Origin: a virus
Lineage: Duplodnaviria; Caudoviricetes
IMG/VR virus record: IMGVR_UViG_3300044611_001018
Length of the DNA: 64,000 bases
Strand: one strand, 5' to 3'
This document shows, piece after piece, positions 1 through 12,387 of the stretch. The notes under the pieces were generated by a model. That model had not been told where the DNA came from. It made no database searches and was given only the letters and a program-made list of their open reading frames with translations. How positions within the stretch are numbered: the first letter of the stretch is position 1; every line of letters begins with the position of its first letter. The translations under genes were made by a program, and so were the position numbers.

Positions 1-348
1 AGAAGTTACAAGTCCTCCTGGATAATAACCCCACTCAAACTCATCAAGTTCTTGAATGATGTTTTCTACCTCTTGAATGTTCTCTGGATTAGTGTAGATG
101 CGTCCGTATCCTTTGTAAGTGAAGGCAGTCATTTCAGTTCTCCTCTTGATGATGGAATACTTTAGCAAACTCTTCTGCTGCCTCAAATGCAAGTTCAGCA
201 CCGAACTTAAAGATTTCCCTTCGTTCTTGTTCCGTAGCACTTTGCATATTAGAACAAGTTTTCAACCACTCAACATAGAGTGTTTGTCCTAAATCAACAA
301 ATCGTTCTTGAGAGAAGTCAGTCATCAGGTGTTTGTTTCTATGAGAGT

Positions 349-404
349 ATTATAAGGCAAAAGAGCACCCTGTGGGATGCTCCTGGGCCAGTTCGTCAAG
401 TGTC
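349..404 (-). promoter_or_regulatory. Early-type promoter: GACACTT-N4-AACTGG box 39 nt upstream of TATAAT
   Basis: Minus strand reads GACACTTGACGAACTGGCCCAGGAGCATCCCACAGGGTGCTCTTTTGCCTTATAAT. Same architecture at five other sites. Confidence 0.75.
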
Positions 405-959
405 TACCCAACGGAAACCCAAAAGTTTATTCATAAAGAACCGAACAATCGCAGTCGGTTTCTTATCCATATAATACTTCAAATACCCATTTCCAAAGGT
501 ATAATACCCAACTTCTTTACCACCTGATTTAATCACAAAACTGGAAGTAATATTACCACCAGTCGCAGTAAGTTTAGAGTAATCTAATGTAAGTTTGAGT
601 GGAAATCTTCCATTCTCACGAGCATACTCAATATCCTCAATAATCTTGGTAATCTTTTTACTAAACTGATACTCTTGATAATATTTGAGTTGTGCGAACT
701 TGTATTCTACATCCTCAATCTGTTTATCAATCTTCTCATCAAACTCTTGTGAGATTTCTTCTAATGACTTGCGTGGTAATTCAAATTTGATTTCTTGTGG
801 CTCATTCGGGATCGTGAAGTATTCTTTGAGAAGTTCATATTGTTCGTTGTCTTCTTCGGCAGAAGCATACAAGTTCATACACTCAAAGACATTTTTTATA
901 TCTTTGATGGTTTTGATTTTACTTATATCAAGTTTGTGATTTAATCGTTTTTCAGTCAT
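396..959 (-). CDS. Hypothetical protein, 187 aa
   Basis: Long ORF coupled to its upstream neighbour by ATGA; no motif recognised. Confidence 0.7.
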   Translation of the reverse strand: MTEKRLNHKLDISKIKTIKDIKNVFECMNLYASAEEDNEQYELLKEYFTIPNEPQEIKFELPRKSLEEISQEFDEKIDKQIEDVEYKFAQLKYYQEYQFSKKITKIIEDIEYARENGRFPLKLTLDYSKLTATGGNITSSFVIKSGGKEVGYYTFGNGYLKYYMDKKPTAIVRFFMNKLLGFRWVDT

Positions 960-2374: not shown

Positions 2375-4696
2375 TTTAGTTTCTCTTTGAGTTCCTCAAT
2401 TTTCTTGGACATCATACCAATGGTTTCATAACACCATTCTCTGTCTTTTTCCAAATCCTCAATCACCAAACGAGCAACTAAGGGCCATTCGTCCTTTGAG
2501 TTCTGCCACCAATCCTTATAATCTTTCGGCATAACTTTCGAGAGTTCCTCATCGTATGCTTGTAGTCGTTCAAGGTCAGTCATTCTTCCCACCCATCAAA
2601 GTATTCTGTGAAAAAGTTGAAACTCAATCCAACATCACCAAACTGAAAATCTGCTCCAAAAAGAGAAGAAGAAGTAAAAAATGAGAGCATGATGTGAAAT
2701 CCACCATTACTATGGACTAAACTACTGGGATTTTCATAATTCACCCAAAGTAATGAACGATTGTTGATGACACCGAACTGCCAAGTGCGGTCAGTTTCAT
2801 CATTATCCCAAACTTTTTTATCGTGTTGAAAGAGTTTCACTGTGGGTCTCCAATAAGTCCAGTAGGTCCAAAAGTATCAAATGTAGTATCTTCCATCCAT
2901 TCCCTCAAATCAACGATTTCATACCAATCATTACTATACTTATCTTTAGATAGTTCTTCCCATTTTTCTTTTGCTTCTTCTTCGGTAGAATAACAAGCAA
3001 CCCAATCACCAGTATAAGCAGAAGGGTAATAGTTGTCCCCAACAATCAAAAGATAAGGTTTAGTCATCGGTCAAAGTATCCAGAAGGTTTGTAATCACTA
3101 ATGTATTGAGTTTTTAGTTGAACATCAAAGGGGTCAATATCGGGGTATTTTTCTTTGAGGTAGGTTTTGCATTCATCACGGGTAGAAAATGCACAAAGAA
3201 TATTTCCGTGATAGAGTGCGACTTCAATTGCTTCAATCATTCTTCATCCTCCTCCTCTTCATCACCCTCCCAGTCAATCTCAACAGTTTCAAACTGTTCT
3301 ACATTAGTATAAGGCATAGGATTTGCAGGTCCTCCCATCTCATAATGGATTTTATCAAACAATTCATTAAGCACTAAACTCTCAAATCCTTCTTGGTCTG
3401 GATAATCCTCCCAGTCTTCAAACATTTCAGTTGTGGGAGCAACTGTGAGAGTTCTGGTGTATGTAACTGTGATTGCTTTGAGTTGGATTTTAGTCATTCT
3501 TCATCCTCACAAGGGAACATTTCGTCGTATGCTTCAGCAGTCAGCACAAGATACTCTACATTTTTAGCATCTTTGTGGTCTTCGTAATACACCATACGAT
3601 AATGGTTGAAGTCGTTGAGGTCTGTGCTGCCGTATTCTACGACACCATCAACAAGGCAGAGGTAGTTCATTTCAGTTTTTGCAGTTGGTAAATGAGATGG
3701 TTGATGTCGTCAGCATCTACATAAGTTCCAGAATAACCACAGTCCTCCTCATCACAACTTTCGTGCTCATAAGCAAGGTTATCCAGCAGATACTGAAGAG
3801 TAGCAATACATACACGAGCACGATCACCTGTTTTGGGTCGTAGAGTGTATTCTTCTGTGACCTTGATTAGCGTCTCTGCGTGTGTTTTTTGTGGTAATGA
3901 TTTAGTCATGGTTTCACAGTTTGAATGAGAATTCGTTCTTTGGTAGTGTCCCGTGCTTTTGCAAGTTGTTCAATCGCCTCTTGATTTCGTTTGGGCAACT
4001 GATCCCATTCTACTTGCTTTTCAATATAAGGTGATGGGAGAAATTTATCAATCTTATGACATACTTTATCCAGAGAGTTGGAAATAAACTCTGCCGTTGC
4101 TTGTGCAATCGCAAACGGACCAAGCACAATCAACCGAATTGCAACAAAATGTGGAATGTATTTGAGGTAGGGATAGGTTTTAGTCATTGGAATGAAGAAT
4201 AGAGAGCATTTGTTGATGGTAGGCATCTGCTTCAACCTCACATTGATGAGATTCAGTTGGATCATCAATATGGTATTGTTTCATATCCAGAGTGTGCATC
4301 ACCTCACCAAGAAGATCAACGAGTGCATCAATCTTTTGTGCGTCAGTCATTTACCTGTAAGATAGTTGAGGTCACTTACGATGCGTTGTGCTTCTTCTGG
4401 TGAGTTACATTCCTCTACAATGTAACTAAATCCATTTGAGAATGTTCGGCGGATTTTGTTACCTTCAGCAAAATAAGTTCCATAGCGAGCAGGGAACTGA
4501 TTTAGGATTGCTCTGATCATCGAATATACAAATACTTTTTGTTTTTAATCATGTGGTCTAAGACCATGGCAATCTTCTGTTCATATGTGGGATTATTGTG
4601 CTTCATACACTCCACATAAGCATCATGTAGACGAGCATAAAGATCATCCCAGTGTTGTTTGTTGATAGGGGTCATCGGTTTGTTGTGTATGAAGTC

Positions 4697-4754
4697 ATTA
4701 TACGGCAAAAAGGGCACCTATGGAGATGCCCTTGTACCAGTTCTTCAAGTGTCC
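4697..4754 (-). promoter_or_regulatory. Early-type promoter, second copy
   Basis: GGACACTTGAAGAACTGGTACAAGGGCATCTCCATAGGTGCCCTTTTTGCCGTATAAT; AACTG lies 40 nt before TATAAT. Confidence 0.75.
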
Positions 4755-5445
4755 TTGTATTTCTCCTCTACTTCCTGAACCCGTTCCATAAAAGTATCAT
4801 CACCGTGATCACCACTATAAAGATAATCAATATGCCTCATAATCTCTGACATCTTACGCATCTTTGGCAGTTGTTCTTTCAGATACTCAATCACTTCTGG
4901 TTCGTGGTTAGGATACCACTCATAACCATAAGTTCGGTCCTCATTTCTCTCCTTACCGTTGTTGAGAATTTCTTCTTCCAACTCATCAGCAAATTGTCCC
5001 ACCTTGTAGTAATCGTAACCACAATCTCCAAAGTGCCCGCCGCTCATTTCTTACCCTCCAGAATGTCAAGTTTTTCGTGAATAAAATCAGTGATATCAAT
5101 GGTATTCGCATCCACACCTTCTTCTTGGCAGTCAAGAATAAACTCCATGAATGCACTAAGAATCAAGCAGGTGCGACGATGATCGTGCTCTGTGATGGTA
5201 GTATGCGGATCGGCAACATACTTGACGATGTAACCATAGAGTTCGTCGTAAGTCATTGTTGTGCTTCAATAATAGATTTGATAGTTTTGAGATCTTCTAA
5301 TCGTGCTTTGTGTTCATCATACTGCTCACAGAAGTCATCCATTCGTTCTTGATGTCCTTCATCATCATAGTTGGTTTCTTCACGGATTTCCCATTCAATA
5401 TCAGAAAGATATGCTTGAGTATCATCAATGAAGTATTCAAGAGTG

Positions 5446-5715
5446 TCAAGGAGTGGCATTTTCGGGAACGGGAGGAGGTGGTGTTGGAGCGGGAAGTGAT
5501 GTTGGTTGAACGATAGGTGCTGGAAGATTAATTGGTGGTGGAGCAACTTGTGGTTCTTGTACTTCTTTAAGTTTCTTCTCCAGTTCCATAACCTTTTGAT
5601 CTAATGGACTCAAAGGAACTTCTTTTTGAGAATCTGCTAGTTTCCAACCAGTAGCACCAGCAGCAAAAATACTTGCAAGTGCAGCAAAAACAGAAACAGT
5701 CTTAGAAAAACTCAT
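5446..5715 (-). CDS. Small membrane-anchored protein with Pro-rich C-terminus
   Basis: Hydrophobic N-terminus (VSVFAALASIFAAGA), short coiled coil, PAPTPPPP tail. Confidence 0.65.
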   Translation of the reverse strand: MSFSKTVSVFAALASIFAAGATGWKLADSQKEVPLSPLDQKVMELEKKLKEVQEPQVAPPPINLPAPIVQPTSLPAPTPPPPVPENATP

Positions 5716-5927
5716 TCAACAACCTCCCAATGTGCGTCAGATTTGTCACCGAAACGATTAACACCAATACGAGTGCTAACCCAGAAAAAGTATTTACGAT
5801 TTTCGGAAGCAAGAAACAATTCACCGCCAGTATCCTGCTCTACAATACAAACAGGATTGTTGTCCATAGTATTAGCAAGACGATTCTTCGCTTTGCTGCT
5901 TTTGGGTTTGACTGTTACTCGACGCAT
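5712..5927 (-). CDS. Hypothetical protein, paralog of 8570..8764
   Basis: MRRVTVKPKSSKAKNRLANTMDNNPVCIVEQD vs MRRVTVRPKSKKAKNRLANMMDNNPICIVEQD. Confidence 0.8.
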   Translation of the reverse strand: MRRVTVKPKSSKAKNRLANTMDNNPVCIVEQDTGGELFLASENRKYFFWVSTRIGVNRFGDKSDAHWEVVE

Positions 5928-6319
5928 TGATCTTTCTCATCAGTCAGGACAGTTCCCATAGGGCCTTTTTTAAGTCGTGCCCACTCTGCTTCTGCTTCTC
6001 GCATATCATCAAACTTCTTCTTCAAGTCCTCACCCAAAGTCAGTTCAAACTCATCGGCAACCTTACGCATATCTTCTTGACTTCTCTCTTCACCAAATGC
6101 AAGACCACAACCACCTTTCATAATGTTGATTTCACTGTGACCCATTGCACGGGCAACAGTTGCGAAGAAGCGAAACAGTTGATAAATGTTAAGGTCTTCG
6201 GCAGGAACCTGAAAAGTATAATGCTCTTCGGGGAGCACTGTATCATCAAAACCACTACTGTAATTGGTGGAAGTCCATTCAGAATCAAACTGAACTTTCA
6301 GGGTTGCTTTGTAGGTCAT
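5915..6319 (-). CDS. Hypothetical protein (start revised to MTYKATLKV)
   Basis: The ORF-track extension overlaps the upstream gene and promoter; ATG at 6319. Confidence 0.65.
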   Translation of the reverse strand: MTYKATLKVQFDSEWTSTNYSSGFDDTVLPEEHYTFQVPAEDLNIYQLFRFFATVARAMGHSEINIMKGGCGLAFGEERSQEDMRKVADEFELTLGEDLKKKFDDMREAEAEWARLKKGPMGTVLTDEKDQCVE

Positions 6320-6470
6320 AATTGAGTTCAACAAGAGGTTTTTTGTCTGTGATGTAATCATACAGCATCTGGGCGAACCCGTACTGGGGTCTTGTGCCAG
6401 TTTCAATACTGGTTGATGTGGCAACAGTCCACATTATATCCAGTTCTTTCTTATCAGGTAGTGGTTTCAT
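6285..6470 (-). CDS. Small hypothetical protein, paralog of 8941..9141
   Basis: LPDKKELDIMWTVATSTSIETGTRPQYGFAQMLYDY; start revised to ATG at 6470. Confidence 0.7.
   Translation of the reverse strand: MKPLPDKKELDIMWTVATSTSIETGTRPQYGFAQMLYDYITDKKPLVELNYDLQSNPESSV
6344..6445. repeat. 102-bp direct repeat, copy 1 (copy 2 at 9015..9116); 6 mismatches, 61-bp perfect core (6385..6445 = 9056..9116)
   Basis: Direct base-by-base comparison. Confidence 0.95.
6357..6413 (-). promoter_or_regulatory. Early-type promoter embedded in coding sequence
   Basis: CCAGTATTGAAACTGGCACAAG box; AACTG lies 40 nt before TGCTG-TATGAT. Confidence 0.6.
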
Positions 6471-6632
6471 CAAAGTCAAAGTATTCATAGATTGAAGACA
6501 TAACCTGCTCCTCAATATGTTCACAGATTGATTCTTCAGTTGGATTTTCTACATGTTTGTGTGCGTGACGATAACCGTAACGAACACCTTCATCAATTGC
6601 CTGTTCCAAGATAACACGGAACTTAGGTTTCA

Positions 6633-7043
6633 TCATTTGTTCATTTGAAGAGTAGGAACAGGCATACCACCTTCAGTTGGCACATAAACAGTTACGTTAC
6701 CTTTGTTAGAACCTTCTTCCAATCCAGTGATATACAGATACTGAAGATACTCACGGTTGTCTTTCAGCGAATCACCGATGATTTGGTTTGCTTTAGCAAC
6801 ACCACCAGCACGAATAACCTCTGCCTCAGCAAGTTGTTGGGCACTATCTTTCTTTGCTTGTGCCTCAAGAACTGCTACCTGACGAGTGTATTCTGCCTTC
6901 TGGAGTTCTGCTTTACCAGCTAGCGATTGTTGCCACACGTTGTATTGAGGACCCCCGATGAATACGATGGCAGCAAACACACCCACACCAAGCACAATCC
7001 AAGCAACAGCGGGGTCAATAGAACCAGAATTACGATTAGTCAT
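6633..7043 (-). CDS. Membrane-anchored coiled-coil protein (possibly SPFH/band-7-like)
   Basis: N-terminal TM helix, Ala/Glu-rich helix AEAEVIRAGGVAKANQII, C-terminal VYVPTEGG. Confidence 0.55.
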   Translation of the reverse strand: MTNRNSGSIDPAVAWIVLGVGVFAAIVFIGGPQYNVWQQSLAGKAELQKAEYTRQVAVLEAQAKKDSAQQLAEAEVIRAGGVAKANQIIGDSLKDNREYLQYLYITGLEEGSNKGNVTVYVPTEGGMPVPTLQMNK

Positions 7044-7290
7044 TTTGTAGAAACGTTAGATTTAAAAATAAGATTAGCAAGGAAGATGATAGCAAAGTTC
7101 TGCCAGAAGGACAAGGATACACCAAACCAAGACAGAATCAATCCAAGCAACCATGCTTCAAAGAATAGTCCCGCAACAGCAAGGACAATTACACCAAAAG
7201 CAACACCAAGAGCAGTAGAAGTTTTCATTAACAATTTTCCTCGATAGTAGAGAGCATAAATTCAGTCAAACATGTGTTTGGACCGAAGTT

Positions 7291-7347
7291 ATTATAAACC
7301 ATAAATTTAATTGATGTGGCACCAGTGGACAGTTTATCAACTGTTCC
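7291..7347 (-). promoter_or_regulatory. Early-type promoter with near-palindromic box
   Basis: GGAACAGTTGATAAACTGTCCAC; AACTG lies 38 nt before TATAAT. Confidence 0.75.
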
Positions 7348-8173
7348 AGACAGCAAGCAATTCCTTAACTTTTTCTCTTGAGTTTTTGTTTGCAGCAATT
7401 GTTCTAGAAACATCAATAGTCGTTAGAGATGCTGAGGAATATAATTCCCGTGCTGCTGGAGTGTCATGATTGCTAACAATAACACGAGCACCACGATTAG
7501 CAAGATTTAGAACTAAATCACGCAAACGAACTTGATCAGCATAATTAAAACCACATGATGCATAATCAGTGAAGTATGCAGTATCATTAATAGGCAGATA
7601 TGGTGGATCAAAATAGACCACTGTGTTGGAATCTATATTTTGATACAATTCATCTGCAGCAAAGTCATATGCAGTCATACGAACAGATTGATTTTGCTTG
7701 AATACTTCTTTGAAGTTTTCCATTTCTTTACGGGGGAAGTATGGAGAACTATACTTACCAAAAGGAACATTGAACTGTCCCTTTTTGTTATAACGAGTCA
7801 ACCCATTAAAACAATGACGATTCAAATAGATGAATAAAATCGCTTTATGACGAGAATCTGAGGTTGTATTGAAAATATCACGATACTGATAAAAAACTTC
7901 TTGGTTATTGCTATCAGCACACACTTTCTCACAATCATCAACAAACTCTTCGTCATTCATTACATAACGATAAAGAGAAATCAAATCACTATTAAAATCA
8001 TTCAACACCATACAATCAGATGCTACGTTAAGTGCAACTGCCATTGAACCAGAGAATGGTTCAATGTATTGTTTGGGAGAACCAATCAACGGCAAGATAT
8101 GAGGCAGAACACGATACTTGCTACCTGCCCATTTTAAAAATGGTTTATTAGTCACAGAGAAATTCCTCAACAA
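7337..8173 (-). CDS. dam: DNA adenine methyltransferase, Dam/D12 family
   Basis: KWAGSK, YIEPFSGS (motif I), YLNRHCFNGLTRYNKKGQFNVPFGKY (Dam-like recognition hairpin), FDPPY (motif IV). Confidence 0.93.
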   Translation of the reverse strand: MLRNFSVTNKPFLKWAGSKYRVLPHILPLIGSPKQYIEPFSGSMAVALNVASDCMVLNDFNSDLISLYRYVMNDEEFVDDCEKVCADSNNQEVFYQYRDIFNTTSDSRHKAILFIYLNRHCFNGLTRYNKKGQFNVPFGKYSSPYFPRKEMENFKEVFKQNQSVRMTAYDFAADELYQNIDSNTVVYFDPPYLPINDTAYFTDYASCGFNYADQVRLRDLVLNLANRGARVIVSNHDTPAARELYSSASLTTIDVSRTIAANKNSREKVKELLAVWNS

Positions 8174-8585
8174 ATTGTTCGTGTGAAATAATGCGTACAG
8201 TTGGGTAAATCTTCTTCATATCACTTTGAAACTGTTCACCCAAATAATAATCCTTCCACTTCCAAGCTTTATCGGGACCAGCAAGAACAAGAATAGCAGA
8301 GTCATATCCATAATCAACACAAGTGTGATGCAATTTCATAATTTCAAAAGGAACCTTTTCTTCAGCAGTTCCTTGAACACGTTGATACTTGAGACTCAAC
8401 AATATATCTCCATTAAGGAGTATATCTACATAATGCTTGCCACCATTACGCTTCAGACCAACATTAACTTGTGATTGAAATTCATGACTAGTGTATTGCT
8501 CCAATAAACTTTCAATTTCTTTTTCATATGTTGTGCCAGTGGTAGTATCCCGCGATGCAGTAGTAGACATTAAATAACCTCCCAA
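8148..8585 (-). CDS. PD-(D/E)xK-fold nuclease-like protein
   Basis: GTTYEKEI...YVDILL...SLKYQRVQGTAEEKVPFE; overlaps the dam start. Confidence 0.65.
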   Translation of the reverse strand: MGGYLMSTTASRDTTTGTTYEKEIESLLEQYTSHEFQSQVNVGLKRNGGKHYVDILLNGDILLSLKYQRVQGTAEEKVPFEIMKLHHTCVDYGYDSAILVLAGPDKAWKWKDYYLGEQFQSDMKKIYPTVRIISHEQFVEEFLCD

Positions 8586-8764
8586 TCACATTCCCAAAAA
8601 TCGTTAATATTCACCCAGAAAAAGTATTTCTGGTTCTCTGATGCAAGAAACATCATACCATCACCTTTGTCCTGCTCTACAATGCAGATAGGATTGTTGT
8701 CCATCATATTCGCAAGGCGGTTTTTAGCCTTCTTGCTTTTGGGTCTGACTGTTACTCTTCTCAT
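8570..8764 (-). CDS. Hypothetical protein, paralog of 5712..5927
   Basis: Near-identical N-terminal 35 aa. Confidence 0.8.
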   Translation of the reverse strand: MRRVTVRPKSKKAKNRLANMMDNNPICIVEQDKGDGMMFLASENQKYFFWVNINDFWECDWEVI

Positions 8765-8981
8765 TTTGAATCTCCAGTTTCAGTTTGCGAATACCAGTAA
8801 CAAAGTAAGCAAAGTCACGGGTTTCAGTGATAGGTTTGGTTTCACCACATACACCACATTTTGCTTCATAAACAGAGGAGCATCCTACAGAATATACTCC
8901 ATACTTCTTCCCACAATCAAAACAAGTATTGTAAGCAGTCTCAAGTTTCTTGAGTAGTGCCTTCTTCTCTTTGAGGTCCAT
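8724..8981 (-). CDS. Small Zn-ribbon protein (start revised to MDLKEKK)
   Basis: CFDCG...CGVCG (two CxxC). Confidence 0.6.
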   Translation of the reverse strand: MDLKEKKALLKKLETAYNTCFDCGKKYGVYSVGCSSVYEAKCGVCGETKPITETRDFAYFVTGIRKLKLEIQNEKSNSQTQKQEG

Positions 8982-9141
8982 CGTAAAGTTCAACTCCGTA
9001 TTTGTTTTTGAGGTTGTCTGTGAGGTAATCATACAGCAGGTCGGCAAACCCGTAATGGGGTCTTGTGCCAGTTTCAATACTGGTTGATGTGGCAACAGTC
9101 CACATTATATCCAGTTGTAGTTTATCTGGTAAATTCTTCAT
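8941..9141 (-). CDS. Small hypothetical protein, paralog of 6285..6470
   Basis: LPDKLQLDIMWTVATSTSIETGTRPHYGFADLLYDY. Confidence 0.7.
   Translation of the reverse strand: MKNLPDKLQLDIMWTVATSTSIETGTRPHYGFADLLYDYLTDNLKNKYGVELYDGPQREEGTTQET
9015..9116. repeat. 102-bp direct repeat, copy 2
   Basis: Matches 6344..6445. Confidence 0.95.
9028..9084 (-). promoter_or_regulatory. Early-type promoter embedded in coding sequence (second embedded copy)
   Basis: AACTGGCACAAG lies 40 nt before TGCTG-TATGAT. Confidence 0.6.
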
Positions 9142-11199
9142 CCAATTTCTCCAAACATTCAAAATTCCAAGTGCGTGATAGTATATCAAGATCAAATCCA
9201 AATTTATGCACCCAAAATAGAATGCTAAAAAAACCATTAGAACCAAAACAAATTTGAAAATAAGGCCATCCAGAAGAATCATTCCAACTGATTGACAACT
9301 GAATCAATGAATAGTTTTTAATAAATTTTGGAAAGTGTCTTCCAGTGTTTAGAATTTGTACATACCAATCATGTCCAAAATCCTCTCTATAATTAAATTT
9401 AATTAAGTTCATCGTCCAACTCCACGTCTTCAGTAAGGTCCTTTAATCTATTAAAAAAGTCTTCATCTAATGGAATAAGTTTTTCTTTTCCAGTCTCAAT
9501 ATCATCTACCATTTGCATTAGATGTTCAAGAAACTCTTTTGGATATGTATCATCTTCACCAAGAGATGTCCAAAACCATTCAAGACATTCTTGTTCTGGG
9601 TCTTCTACGGTTCTTGGCAAAGCATAATCGGTATAGTTGGAAGTCATAAGGTCTGCCCAGATTCGGAATGCTCCACGAATACTTTGCCATCCTGTCATCC
9701 AACAATGTCCAATCCAATATTCCCACCAGTTCATGGTGGTTCGGTTTTTCTTTGGTGCGGTTCCTCTTACTAGTGTACTATGCATATCTTACTTTCTCAA
9801 AACGTTCCGTATTATGAACTACTTCTTCTATAATACCATACCTAAAAAATATTTTGCAACTTGGATAGGGTGAATATTTGCAATCCCATACAGAAGGATA
9901 TACCTCTACAACACCATAGTGATAAACTGGTCTAACTTTACCATGAATTCCATTTGGAACCCAAATAAAGTTTAAAAATAATCTATCAGGATTATATCCA
10001 TCATCACCTTCTTTTAATTCAACAAAATCAGCAGTATGTGAATCGTCAATCAAAAATAATCTACCCAATGGATCAATCCAATATTGATTCATTAGAGAAT
10101 CTAGGTCTTTTGTTTGCAATTCTTTTTGATATCCTGGACCAAGATCGTAAGAGCTTTTAATTGTGTCAAACATTCCCATAGATTTATTCTCCTATTTTTG
10201 GATCTTCATTTAGGTAATATCCTCTCCAATCTGCTACTCTAATGCACTCATCAATATCCCATGCAAGTTTTTTATTTGCAGACGTAGAGTTACGTGGTTT
10301 GTAAACAATACCAGTATTCATGTCAATAAAACAATGTGTCTTTGGAGTATCAGTATCAGTTAATTGAAGAACTCTATAATACTTTTTATTATCATCATCT
10401 ATTACAAAAGATCCAATATCTAAGTTATTATCAAGTTCTCTTCTTTTATATTTAATTTCTATTGTTTCACCCTCACTTAACTCTCTTCTACTTAAAATAT
10501 AACGAGTTTCCCTAAAATAATCTTCAGTCAACTTAAGACAAAGCAGACCAGTTTTAAGAAGAATCATGTTTTTAACACGACTCTTTTCTTCTAGTCTGCT
10601 TTTGTAGTCTATATCTATATCTTCTTTTGTTTTTATACCTTTTTTGTATAATTCAAGTAAATCAGAATCCATTTTAGCTGAGATAAGATATATTATCTAT
10701 AATCTTATGCCCCCATCTCCCTCATACTACGAACAAGATATTCCGTAAATTGTTCCATTTTTTCTGGATGAACTGTAGCTGGATTAGTATTGATTGCATT
10801 TCTAAGAGCGATCATCTCCTGCCATTCGGCGTCAGTGAGTTTGTTGTCCTTAGAAGAAAATGTCATGCTGGGGTGCTCCCGTAATTTGTCAGCATATTCT
10901 AACAATATTTAACCATAAAGTGTTATTTCTTAATATTATCTTTAGAGTGTTGTAACATATCTTTACGAACCAAAGGGTCCCCACGTTCCCTTATCACCTT
11001 CCATTCTCTGCTCCAATTTATCTAGAAGACCATCAAAACTCATGATATGGTCAATATCTACAATTAACTTTGAGATTGCATTACAAACCACTGGACGTTC
11101 CTGACGAGCAGCATAAGACAGAGCATTACGAAGAGAAGATTCTGCTTCCTTCAAACTTGTTTCAACAGATTGAGAGAGTGCCATAGAATTAAGTAACAA
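9122..11199 (-). other. Run of hypothetical ORFs (9122..9412, 9399..9785, 9778..10179, 10184..10672, 10705..10905, 10963..11199)
   Basis: Co-oriented, abutting ORFs. 10184..10672 ends in an HCFIDMNTGIVYKP motif of a kind common in phage hypotheticals. Confidence 0.7.
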
Positions 11200-11236: not shown

Positions 11237-12387
11237 GTAAACCAAGTAACAATTGAATAACGTGTTCCTTTGACGACAGGCATAACCTCATGAGGGTACA
11301 TAAAGTTTGATGGGAATACAATTACAGACCCTGGTCTTGTTCTAATTTGCATTTCTCTATCAAAGAATGCAAATTCACCACCAACATAGTCATCATTTAA
11401 ATTAAATGACATTGAAATCGTTCTTGGTTGTGTTTTAAAACTATCAGTGTGTTGAATATAATATCCACCCTCTTGATATCTTAAAAGGTCATATCCACTA
11501 TCGGACTGTAAAAAACAATCTGGGAAGTCTACAATATACTTTTTTGCTGCATCTGCAGACTTGTTAAAAAGAATATCATCTATTTTCTTCCTCACATCTT
11601 GATTTGAAGCAATTACATGACCAAGAGATATGTTAATAATATCGCAGTTCCTAACAGAAGTATTTTGATTACCATTAACACCTATCTCAGATGTTCTCCA
11701 CTCTGCTGCATCTTTATATTCTGATATGATATAATCACACTCTTCCTTTGTAAGAATGTCATCATAAATTTTGATATAACTTGCAAGACTATTCAAACTT
11801 TTTGTCACAACTGGTTTAGTTTCAACTGGTTTAATCGCATCTTCGGTTATTCTATGGTCTTTATCAAAATAACTAGAAAAATAAGGACCACGACTTCTCA
11901 CATAATGCAAAAATACTTGATTACAATAAGTTCCCTTAAATGGTTCTCTCCAATGAGGACCTTCTATTCCCAGATACAACATTGCATCTCCAGGATTCAA
12001 GATAACTTCCTTTTTAACCTTTTTAGGAGTCTCAATCCATATTGCCCACGGTTGATCGCAATCTAAATTAATAGTTAAAGATATCTCACAATGAGACTTG
12101 TCAATATGGGGTTTTAATTCATTACCGTGTTGATAAATTCTAGCATAAGAATACGTGGGAACCACAGTCTCTCCAATTAACTGAGACACTGTGGTTGTTT
12201 TTTCACACAATAACTCTACAAAAGAAATATAATCATATTTACTTTTACATCCAGATACTTGAGAATCATCTTTCAAGTCATAAGTATCTGCATATTCTTT
12301 AAATTCTTCTGCTAATTGTTTTGCTTTTTCCGATGATATAAAATTAGGGACAACAACATAGTTGTCCTCAAATAATTTAGAGATCAT
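11233..12387 (-). CDS. Tandem double-domain 2OG-Fe(II) oxygenase (prolyl-4-hydroxylase-like)
   Basis: Domain 1: ARIY...HIDK...HWRE. Domain 2: LRYQEGGYYIQHTD...GGEF...HEVMPV...RYSIVTW. Confidence 0.88.
   Translation of the reverse strand: MISKLFEDNYVVVPNFISSEKAKQLAEEFKEYADTYDLKDDSQVSGCKSKYDYISFVELLCEKTTTVSQLIGETVVPTYSYARIYQHGNELKPHIDKSHCEISLTINLDCDQPWAIWIETPKKVKKEVILNPGDAMLYLGIEGPHWREPFKGTYCNQVFLHYVRSRGPYFSSYFDKDHRITEDAIKPVETKPVVTKSLNSLASYIKIYDDILTKEECDYIISEYKDAAEWRTSEIGVNGNQNTSVRNCDIINISLGHVIASNQDVRKKIDDILFNKSADAAKKYIVDFPDCFLQSDSGYDLLRYQEGGYYIQHTDSFKTQPRTISMSFNLNDDYVGGEFAFFDREMQIRTRPGSVIVFPSNFMYPHEVMPVVKGTRYSIVTWFT

Follow-up and report, generated by a model that had tools for sequence, protein, structure and literature searches.

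A micro-gene of freshwater T4-like cyanophages that probably carries an in-frame promoter-type cassette and serves as a recombination joint

The sequence considered here is a 64,000-nt stretch of the IMG/VR virus record IMGVR_UViG_3300044611_001018 (hereafter the window), and our subject is a micro open reading frame (micro-ORF) that it carries in two copies. The window is DNA of a T4-like cyanomyovirus whose nearest cultured relative is S-SRM01, a freshwater Synechococcus phage of the Kyanoviridae, with approximately 80-87% identity in patches; an uncultured IMG/VR fragment, termed G001, is approximately 98% identical across most of the region. The genes around both micro-ORFs all lie on the minus strand, and copy 2 occupies the usual genomic position, after the F2 and F5 genes. 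The following features were mapped in and around the two copies.

6285-6470, minus strand: micro-ORF copy 1, 61 aa, beginning MKPLPDKKELDIMWTV (ORF list, homologs, ratio of non-synonymous to synonymous diversity (pN/pS), AlphaFold).
8941-9141, minus strand: micro-ORF copy 2, 66 aa, beginning MKNLPDKLQLDIMWTV (ORF list).
6385-6445 and 9056-9116, minus strand: identical 61-nt run, AACTGG...GACCCCA.
6391-6412, minus strand: in-frame upstream box of copy 1, CCAGT-ATTGAA-ACTGGCACAAG, with the core ACTGGCACAAG at 6391-6401 and the palindrome CCAGTATTGAAACTGG at 6397-6412.
9062-9083, minus strand: in-frame upstream box of copy 2, with the core box at 9062-9072 and the palindrome at 9068-9083.
6330-6365, minus strand: -10-like CTG-TATGAT of copy 1 followed by TACATCACAGAC AAAAAACC, hexamer at 6357-6362.
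9001-9036, minus strand: -10-like CTG-TATGAT of copy 2 and its downstream region, hexamer at 9028-9033.

Both copies fall in a 132-nt repeat (family D2; 6343-6474 versus 9014-9145) with 87% identity. An earlier note made from the letters alone had reported 61 bp identical in both copies between diverged flanking codons, which we could confirm: the run encodes (E/Q)LDIMWTVATSTSIETGTRP in both ORFs, and the remaining 68 aligned nt of their first 129 nt carry 17 differences, both synonymous and non-synonymous. The palindrome within the run has no other exact occurrence in the window, and its count at one mismatch was attained in none of 100 shuffles. The spacing between palindrome and TATGAT, which the same note had put at exactly 40 nt, is indeed equal in both copies but amounts to 34 nt when counted from the palindrome end, or 28 nt from the end of ACTGGCACAAG. 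The ATG of the next gene follows 37 nt past the hexamer in copy 1 and 46 nt past it in copy 2.

There are 162 viral contigs with homologs of the micro-ORF, its protein homologs make up 279 clusters (51-69 aa), and a profile search of 1.8 billion representatives added further members at about 30-50% identity. After three additional locus searches, 136 distinct ORF sequences (45-71 aa) were assembled. Their first ~42 residues are conserved as MK.LPDK..LDIMWTVATS.SIETGTRP.YGFA..LYDYL.D, and the overall pN/pS of 0.27 indicates purifying selection on the residues. At codons 10-19 and 29-33 the residues are invariant while third positions are near saturation, with synonymous diversity (pS) of 0.60 and 0.59, respectively. 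AlphaFold2 predicted a helix at residues 7-24, a loop at 25-27 and a second helix at 28-40, with pLDDT above 90 for residues 1-40 and a disordered tail. This tail, corresponding to the last ~12 codons of copy 1, is an out-of-frame reading of the first codons of the next gene, as in YDLQSNPESSV*, which derives from ATGACCTACAAAGCAACC. No match for the micro-ORF was obtained in Pfam or PHROG, nor any at E < 1 in a fold search with the micro-protein model. We conclude that the micro-ORF is a real gene encoding a two-helix hairpin protein of ~45 residues with a variable tail. At its 5' end, codons 5-7 (CCTGATAA; 6454-6470 and 9122-9141, minus strand) supply TGA and TAA in the two other frames, and the upstream gene, whatever its identity, ends at the TGA in CCTGATAA in 45 of 61 distinct loci.

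Two islands within this gene resist synonymous change. Island 1 corresponds to CCAGT-N6-ACTGGCACAAG and island 2 to CTGTATGAT-TACCTCACAGAC-AAAAAACC, with CTGTATGAT at 6357-6365 and 9028-9036. In codons 20-28 the synonymous diversity drops to 0.19 and in codons 36-43 to 0.27, compared with the near-saturated values of the neighbouring codons given above. Codons 20-26 read ACC AGT ATY GAA ACT GGC ACA, where only the loop codon 22 is variable; AGT is used in 58/58 sequences, ACT in 57/58, GGC in 56/58, ACA in 50/50 and ACC in 39/39. Codons 36-44 read CTG TAT GAT TAC CTC ACA GAC AAA AAA, with TAT in 58/58, GAT in 57/57 and CTG in 52/58, and with the rare codons TAC, CTC and GAC likewise fixed. Most of these choices run against the usage in the genome's long genes, where GGC accounts for 4%, CTG for 5%, CTC for 4%, ACC for 9%, TAC for 17% and GAC for 18%. 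The box encodes residues 20-27, where helix 1 passes into the inter-helix loop and where residues differ between branches of the family, and the -10 and leader map to the end of helix 2 and beyond. Synonymous conservation across homologs, which the earlier note had named as the check for its proposal that selection acts on DNA as well as on protein, was thus found at the bases of the two islands, but the 5' half of the 61-nt run is free and the palindrome as such is not singled out. The element that stands out is ACTGGCACAAG together with TATGAT and the bases that follow. Antisense ORFs in the ORF list also cross the box; constraint is confined to the box.

Together, the two islands make up an in-frame copy of a motif widespread between the genes of Kyanoviridae. 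In some relatives lacking the box, a spacer of ~120 nt after the micro-ORF holds CTTGAAGAACTGGCACAAGG...TATAAT...ATG, and a search of all fetched loci with the box returned ~80 contexts outside micro-ORFs. A stricter pattern retained 74 distinct intergenic instances of common architecture, whose core is GACACTTGAAGA-ACTGGCACAGG, N27-28, TATAAT and an ATG ~22 nt further on, with the consensus agGaCAcTTgaa.A-ACTGGCACAgg, N26-29, TATAAT, a...TcATA.acAaa.aaacc. The spacer measures 27 or 28 nt in 68/74, the hexamer is TATAAT in 73/74 and the start codon lies 21-26 nt past it in 60/74; a run of at least four T occurs in the spacer of 32/74, and in 25 of the 74 the TGA of CTTGAAG is the stop codon of the upstream gene. 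Furthermore, the instances share flanks outside the search pattern. In whole genomes the motif is strand-specific, with 13 forward and 0 reverse sites in S-SRM01 and 7 and 0 in the marine phage S-PM2, as compared to 0-1 for reversed-pattern controls. A position weight matrix trained on the non-micro-ORF instances only was then scored on both strands of the window, with a shuffle maximum of 7, and gave the following sites.

4676-4755, minus strand: canonical intergenic motif copy, GGACACTTGAAGA-ACTGGTACAAG-hairpin+TTTTT-TATAAT-GACTTCATACAC...ATG; matrix hit at 4755 on the gene strand, score 60.1.
325-406, minus strand: second canonical intergenic motif copy; matrix hit at 406 on the gene strand, score 54.5.
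9086, gene strand: micro-ORF copy 2, score 26.3, rank 3.
6415, gene strand: micro-ORF copy 1, score 23.3, rank 4.
7347, gene strand: weaker site, score 17.0, rank 5.

The embedded copies fit the motif definition, ACTGGCACA(A/G)G, a spacer of 26-29 nt and TAnnAT, with an exact box, 28 nt and TATGAT, and their likeness to the intergenic instances continues past the hexamer (TcA.A.ACAaa.aaCC), outside the search pattern. Variants in which Asp38 is replaced by Asn display a perfect TATAAT; these comprise locus L083, the 45%-identical homolog of DSL-LC02 and 28 other ORFs. In the whole family the scores for the embedded motif are bimodal, with 77 distinct ORFs at 15 or above and 59 below. The former are the [TSG]S[IL]ETGT branch, including both window copies, and the latter carry sequences such as SAIETRE or SAIEGQG, with freely varying codons for Ala21. 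A separate canonical motif lies directly downstream of 7/59 box-less ORFs versus 1/76 ORFs of the embedded branch.

Several further details of the motif sites were recorded. Both canonical window copies hold a GC hairpin and a T-run in the spacer and contain the stop codon of the upstream gene (CTTGAAG or CTTGACG), which in the 4676-4755 copy is the TGA within CTTGAAG. The weaker site (7280-7347, minus strand; ACTGTCCACTG...TATAAT) lies at the 3' end of dam, ~60 nt upstream of a small membrane-protein gene starting at 7228. In S-PM2 (NC_006820) motif sites were recorded at 8588, 9868, 11362, 21502, 22944 and 90523, all on one strand and mostly in the variable 'ORFanage' region, and for S-PM2p035 the annotated start (9900) falls within the motif spacer and precedes by 11 codons the ATG located after the motif.

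The identity of the 61-nt run calls for a separate explanation. The earlier note had taken it as a sign of selection on the DNA, and this argument does not hold: in 58 distinct close homologs, codons 10-19, which lie within the run, vary freely at synonymous sites, including the GAT-ATA-ATG that is the source of a TATAAT in the window (ATA is present in 14/58), and S-SRM01 shows 6 synonymous changes and 1 replacement within the run. Selection does not, therefore, hold the whole run. When we considered the 870 pairs of distinct homologous ORFs whose flanks are as diverged as those of the window pair (at least 15 differences), an identical 61-nt core was found in only 2 (~0.2%), with a median of 9 differences. 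G001 carries copy 2 only, identical over the first 129 nt, and lacks exactly the block 6472-5446, where the flanks fall to 95% and 88% identity, and in locus L055 this 61-nt haplotype is combined with other flanks. The two copies represent different tail and flank types, each of which is single in other phages, and the micro-ORF family is strongly mosaic. The rest of the two cassettes is only ~75-79% identical, so the pair is not the product of a recent duplication of the whole cassette. Taking together the free synonymous variation, the rarity of identical cores, the G001 indel and the L055 haplotype, the identity is best explained by recombination, either as a crossover inside the module or as a short conversion tract, in agreement with the alternative that the earlier note had itself offered. 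A four-gamete and Rm analysis was saturated by recurrent synonymous change, and breakpoints are not informed by it.

Three further observations were made. The sequence GAATACTT, which encodes Glu-Tyr-Phe in both F4 and F10, flanks the block missing from G001 at ~6480 and ~5425 (minus strand), with its G001 counterpart at 97365-97420, and this may be microhomology or coincidence. In S-SRM01 (L001, 4496-5032) the micro-ORF is separated from the phrog_6458 gene by an HNH endonuclease gene and an 81-aa ORF; gene conversion around the joint could result from the action of such a free-standing homing endonuclease. Two micro-ORFs were seen in just one other fetched locus, L173 (IMGVR_UViG_3300032221_000316), where both are of the box-less SAIEGQG type and lie ~750 nt apart.

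Downstream of the module, gene content is exchanged between phages. The usual order is F4-F14-F2-F5-[micro-ORF]-X-phrog_1653-F8-F10, where X and the genes after it vary, members of no fewer than 20 unrelated families beginning 37, 44 or 46 nt past the hexamer. Since the module itself is conserved and the genes beside it change, it would also act as a homology patch for cassette exchange. The genes concerned in the window are these.

5915-6319, minus strand: gene after copy 1, phrog_6458 (MTYKATL...).
5712-5927, minus strand: phrog_1653 paralog ending cassette 1, 79% identical at the nt level to 8570-8764 across the repeat.
8724-8981, minus strand: gene after copy 2, Cys-rich and zinc-ribbon-like (MDLKEKK...).
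8570-8764, minus strand: phrog_1653 paralog ending cassette 2.
5446-6472, minus strand: four-gene block (micro-ORF 1, phrog_6458, phrog_1653, F8) missing from G001.

The PD-(D/E)XK nuclease gene upstream of dam (8148-8573) is replaced in G001 by ~590 nt of unrelated sequence (94681-95272), with dam kept.

We consider it probable, on balance, that the second half of the micro-ORF is at once an in-frame promoter-type cassette, part of a coding gene and a recombination joint. The earlier note had spoken of a promoter in disguise, and this idea finds its support in the comparison with the intergenic motif, which has the same 28-nt spacing, but not in the argument from identity by which it had been reached. 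For both the intergenic motif and the embedded copy, promoter activity is something that we infer from sequence comparison. The scenario would be as follows. In a small gene of freshwater T4-like cyanophages near S-SRM01, one large branch would embed in frame a standard intergenic cassette consisting of the box ACTGGCACA(A/G)G, a spacer of 27-28 nt, a -10 hexamer and a conserved start-site and leader region, the hexamer reading TATGAT instead of TATAAT because the codons must read Tyr-Asp. The host RNA polymerase would start transcription ~7 nt past the hexamer, and the box, at about -50 to -40, would probably be bound by a helper factor aiding this polymerase. Copy 1 would thereby drive expression of phrog_6458, phrog_1653 and the genes beyond, as far as the terminator/promoter cassette at ~4755-4690, and copy 2 would do so for the zinc-ribbon-like gene, phrog_1653, the PD-(D/E)XK nuclease and dam; for the nuclease and dam the earlier note had proposed the same, which gene order makes plausible.

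A number of points weigh against this interpretation. TAT (83%) and GAT (82%) are the genome's preferred codons, so that the hexamer alone is weak evidence, and a permutation test for clustering of the constrained codons gave a modest p of ~0.02. No -35-like hexamer is present 17 nt upstream in either the embedded or the intergenic version, and the TATGAT site was not among the hits of a generic sigma-70 scan, which in 5000-10000 are at chance level. Since the search that first turned up the intergenic instances used the box of the micro-ORF itself, the matrix is partly circular in its box half; this circularity does not touch the number of instances, the narrow range of their spacers, the additional conserved flanks, the strand bias or the match past the hexamer, which give independent support. 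Finally, 59 of the 136 family members are without the box, which shows that the protein does not need it, and the micro-ORF of S-SRM01 itself has a degraded box (score 8.7).

Other assignments were considered and rejected. The sigma-70 scan hit TTTACC-18-TATAAT is present in copy 2 only, and its TATAAT is the poorly conserved one within codons 10-19. A sigma-54 (-24/-12) promoter, TGGCAC-N5-TTGC, would find TGGCAC, but CCCA or GGGC stands in place of TTGC; cyanobacteria are not known to have sigma-54. The GTA-N8-TAC of an NtcA-activated promoter is absent from both the embedded and the canonical consensus. The micro-protein is unlikely to be the box-binding factor itself, since S-PM2 has the motif but no detectable homolog and the protein is of near-neutral charge.

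Four other explanations of the embedded cassette were weighed. We regard it as improbable that recombination alone accounts for the data, by recent gene conversion or crossover and with no DNA-level function overlapping the coding sequence. Such an origin agrees with the synonymously free 5' half of the run, the changes in S-SRM01, the exceptional identity of the core among diverged pairs and the mosaic family, but leaves unexplained the fixation of very rare codons in 58-136 distinct homologs, the threefold drop of pS in two islands and the match of these islands, at the same spacing, to an intergenic motif. A role at the RNA level, where a CCAGU-N6-ACUGG hairpin and the region downstream would serve processing, stability or translational coupling in a polycistronic mRNA, has a still smaller chance of being correct. 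The inverted repeat of 5 bp is perfect, with variation in its loop (ATTGAA, ATCGAA, TTAGAA...) but not in its arms, and the genes overlap and are probably co-transcribed; against this, the fold is no better than that of shuffles (z -1.4 and -0.3), the predicted structures use the hairpin inconsistently, neither compensatory changes nor an Rfam match were seen, and the intergenic relatives keep ACTGGCACA without the left arm, combined with a TATAAT whose distance to the ATG is constant. We give very little credence to the idea that TATGAT is conserved because the downstream gene really starts, in another frame, at the ATG inside it: this ATG is in frame with the next gene and open in both window copies and at many loci of the zinc-ribbon type, but in ~60% of distinct loci the frame closes within 3-13 codons, the Asn38 variants have TATAAT and no ATG, and DSL-LC02 has its own AAGAGG-ATG start. 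Equally hard to credit is an untranslated micro-ORF, merely a promoter-bearing spacer open by chance, which would fit its very short length and the lack of Pfam, PHROG or fold matches but not the invariant residues amid saturated synonymous change, the retention of the protein in box-less relatives, its confident fold prediction or the conserved overlap of its start codon with the upstream stop.

To return to the promoter-type cassette, its layout can be compared with known systems. In the PeSLs, which are early-promoter/stem-loop cassettes, TATAAT lies a short fixed distance before the start codon, after a hairpin and a T-run. Intergenic PeSLs mediate modular shuffling in T4-like phages (RB49/phi1, T4/PST, KVP40/nt-1) (Arbiol et al. 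2010, PMC2839356; Comeau et al. 2014, PMC4122927); reporter assays in RB49/phi1 demonstrated that they act both as promoters and as terminators (PMC2839356), and the formation of mini-circles was shown experimentally (PMC2839356, PMC4122927). PeSLs are the closest known kind to the embedded cassette, and the likeness extends to several traits. In both cases, short conserved promoter (and terminator) cassettes in gene orientation cluster in the variable early region and lie beside indels or gene replacements between close relatives. Here, G001, at 98% identity, lacks the copy-1 block, and the at least 20 gene families mentioned above follow the module, which, like PeSLs, would offer homology for the exchange of cassettes. 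The canonical intergenic copies (4755-4676 and 406-325) have the hairpin, the T-run and a TATAAT just before the start codon. However, PeSLs are found between genes, whereas the embedded copies lie entirely within a conserved gene and share its reading frame; these copies possess only a 5-bp inverted repeat, with no T-run and with a fold not better than shuffles. We thus set the embedded copies apart from PeSL members, as they are neither intergenic nor equipped with a terminator. Furthermore, PeSLs have sigma-70-like -35 and -10 elements at N17, whereas here the -10 is accompanied by a box at -50 to -40 and no conserved -35, and the window holds 4-5 copies of this putative promoter in 64 kb rather than dozens. 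A study of S-PM2 considered it unlikely that PeSLs had mediated ORF acquisition in its variable region and noted a stem-loop at 11369-11391 (PMC4503421); in our analysis this stem-loop lies within one of the S-PM2 box-motif hits.

Two other comparisons are informative. Phage T4 has early and middle promoters that sit inside the coding sequence of the preceding gene; there, likewise, a tightly packed ORF contains the promoter of the gene that comes after it. In the present case, in contrast, translation covers the whole cassette from box to leader, and more than 70 distinct homologs conserve it along with its dedicated micro-protein. A review (PMC2984593) covers sigma-70-like motifs of early promoters, reported ahead of early genes in S-PM2 and Syn9. 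These share with our motif the virus family, the intergenic positions in the early region and a TATAAT-type -10; the review's description mentions no box at about -45.

It is possible, and we propose it tentatively, that ACTGGCACA(A/G)G placed 27-28 nt before the -10 and replacing the -35 defines a promoter class specific to cyanomyoviruses and read by a phage or host factor, and that in one lineage such a promoter was written whole into the loop and second helix of a micro-protein. The early and middle transcription of T4-like cyanophages, which are without MotA/AsiA, has been described as unresolved (PMC2984593). If real, this promoter class would bear on how early and middle transcription is programmed in phages without these proteins, and the sharply defined, strand-specific motif common to freshwater phages and the marine S-PM2, with a box in place of the -35, makes the question testable. 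The embedded copy would represent a natural case of dual coding, in which the same ~85 nt are constrained as protein, as regulatory signal and as recombination joint, with the upstream box sitting in the tolerant loop of the protein. This would extend to cyanophages the idea of mobile regulatory linkers derived from PeSLs: gene, promoter and recombination linker would be combined in one portable unit, importing genes already equipped for expression.

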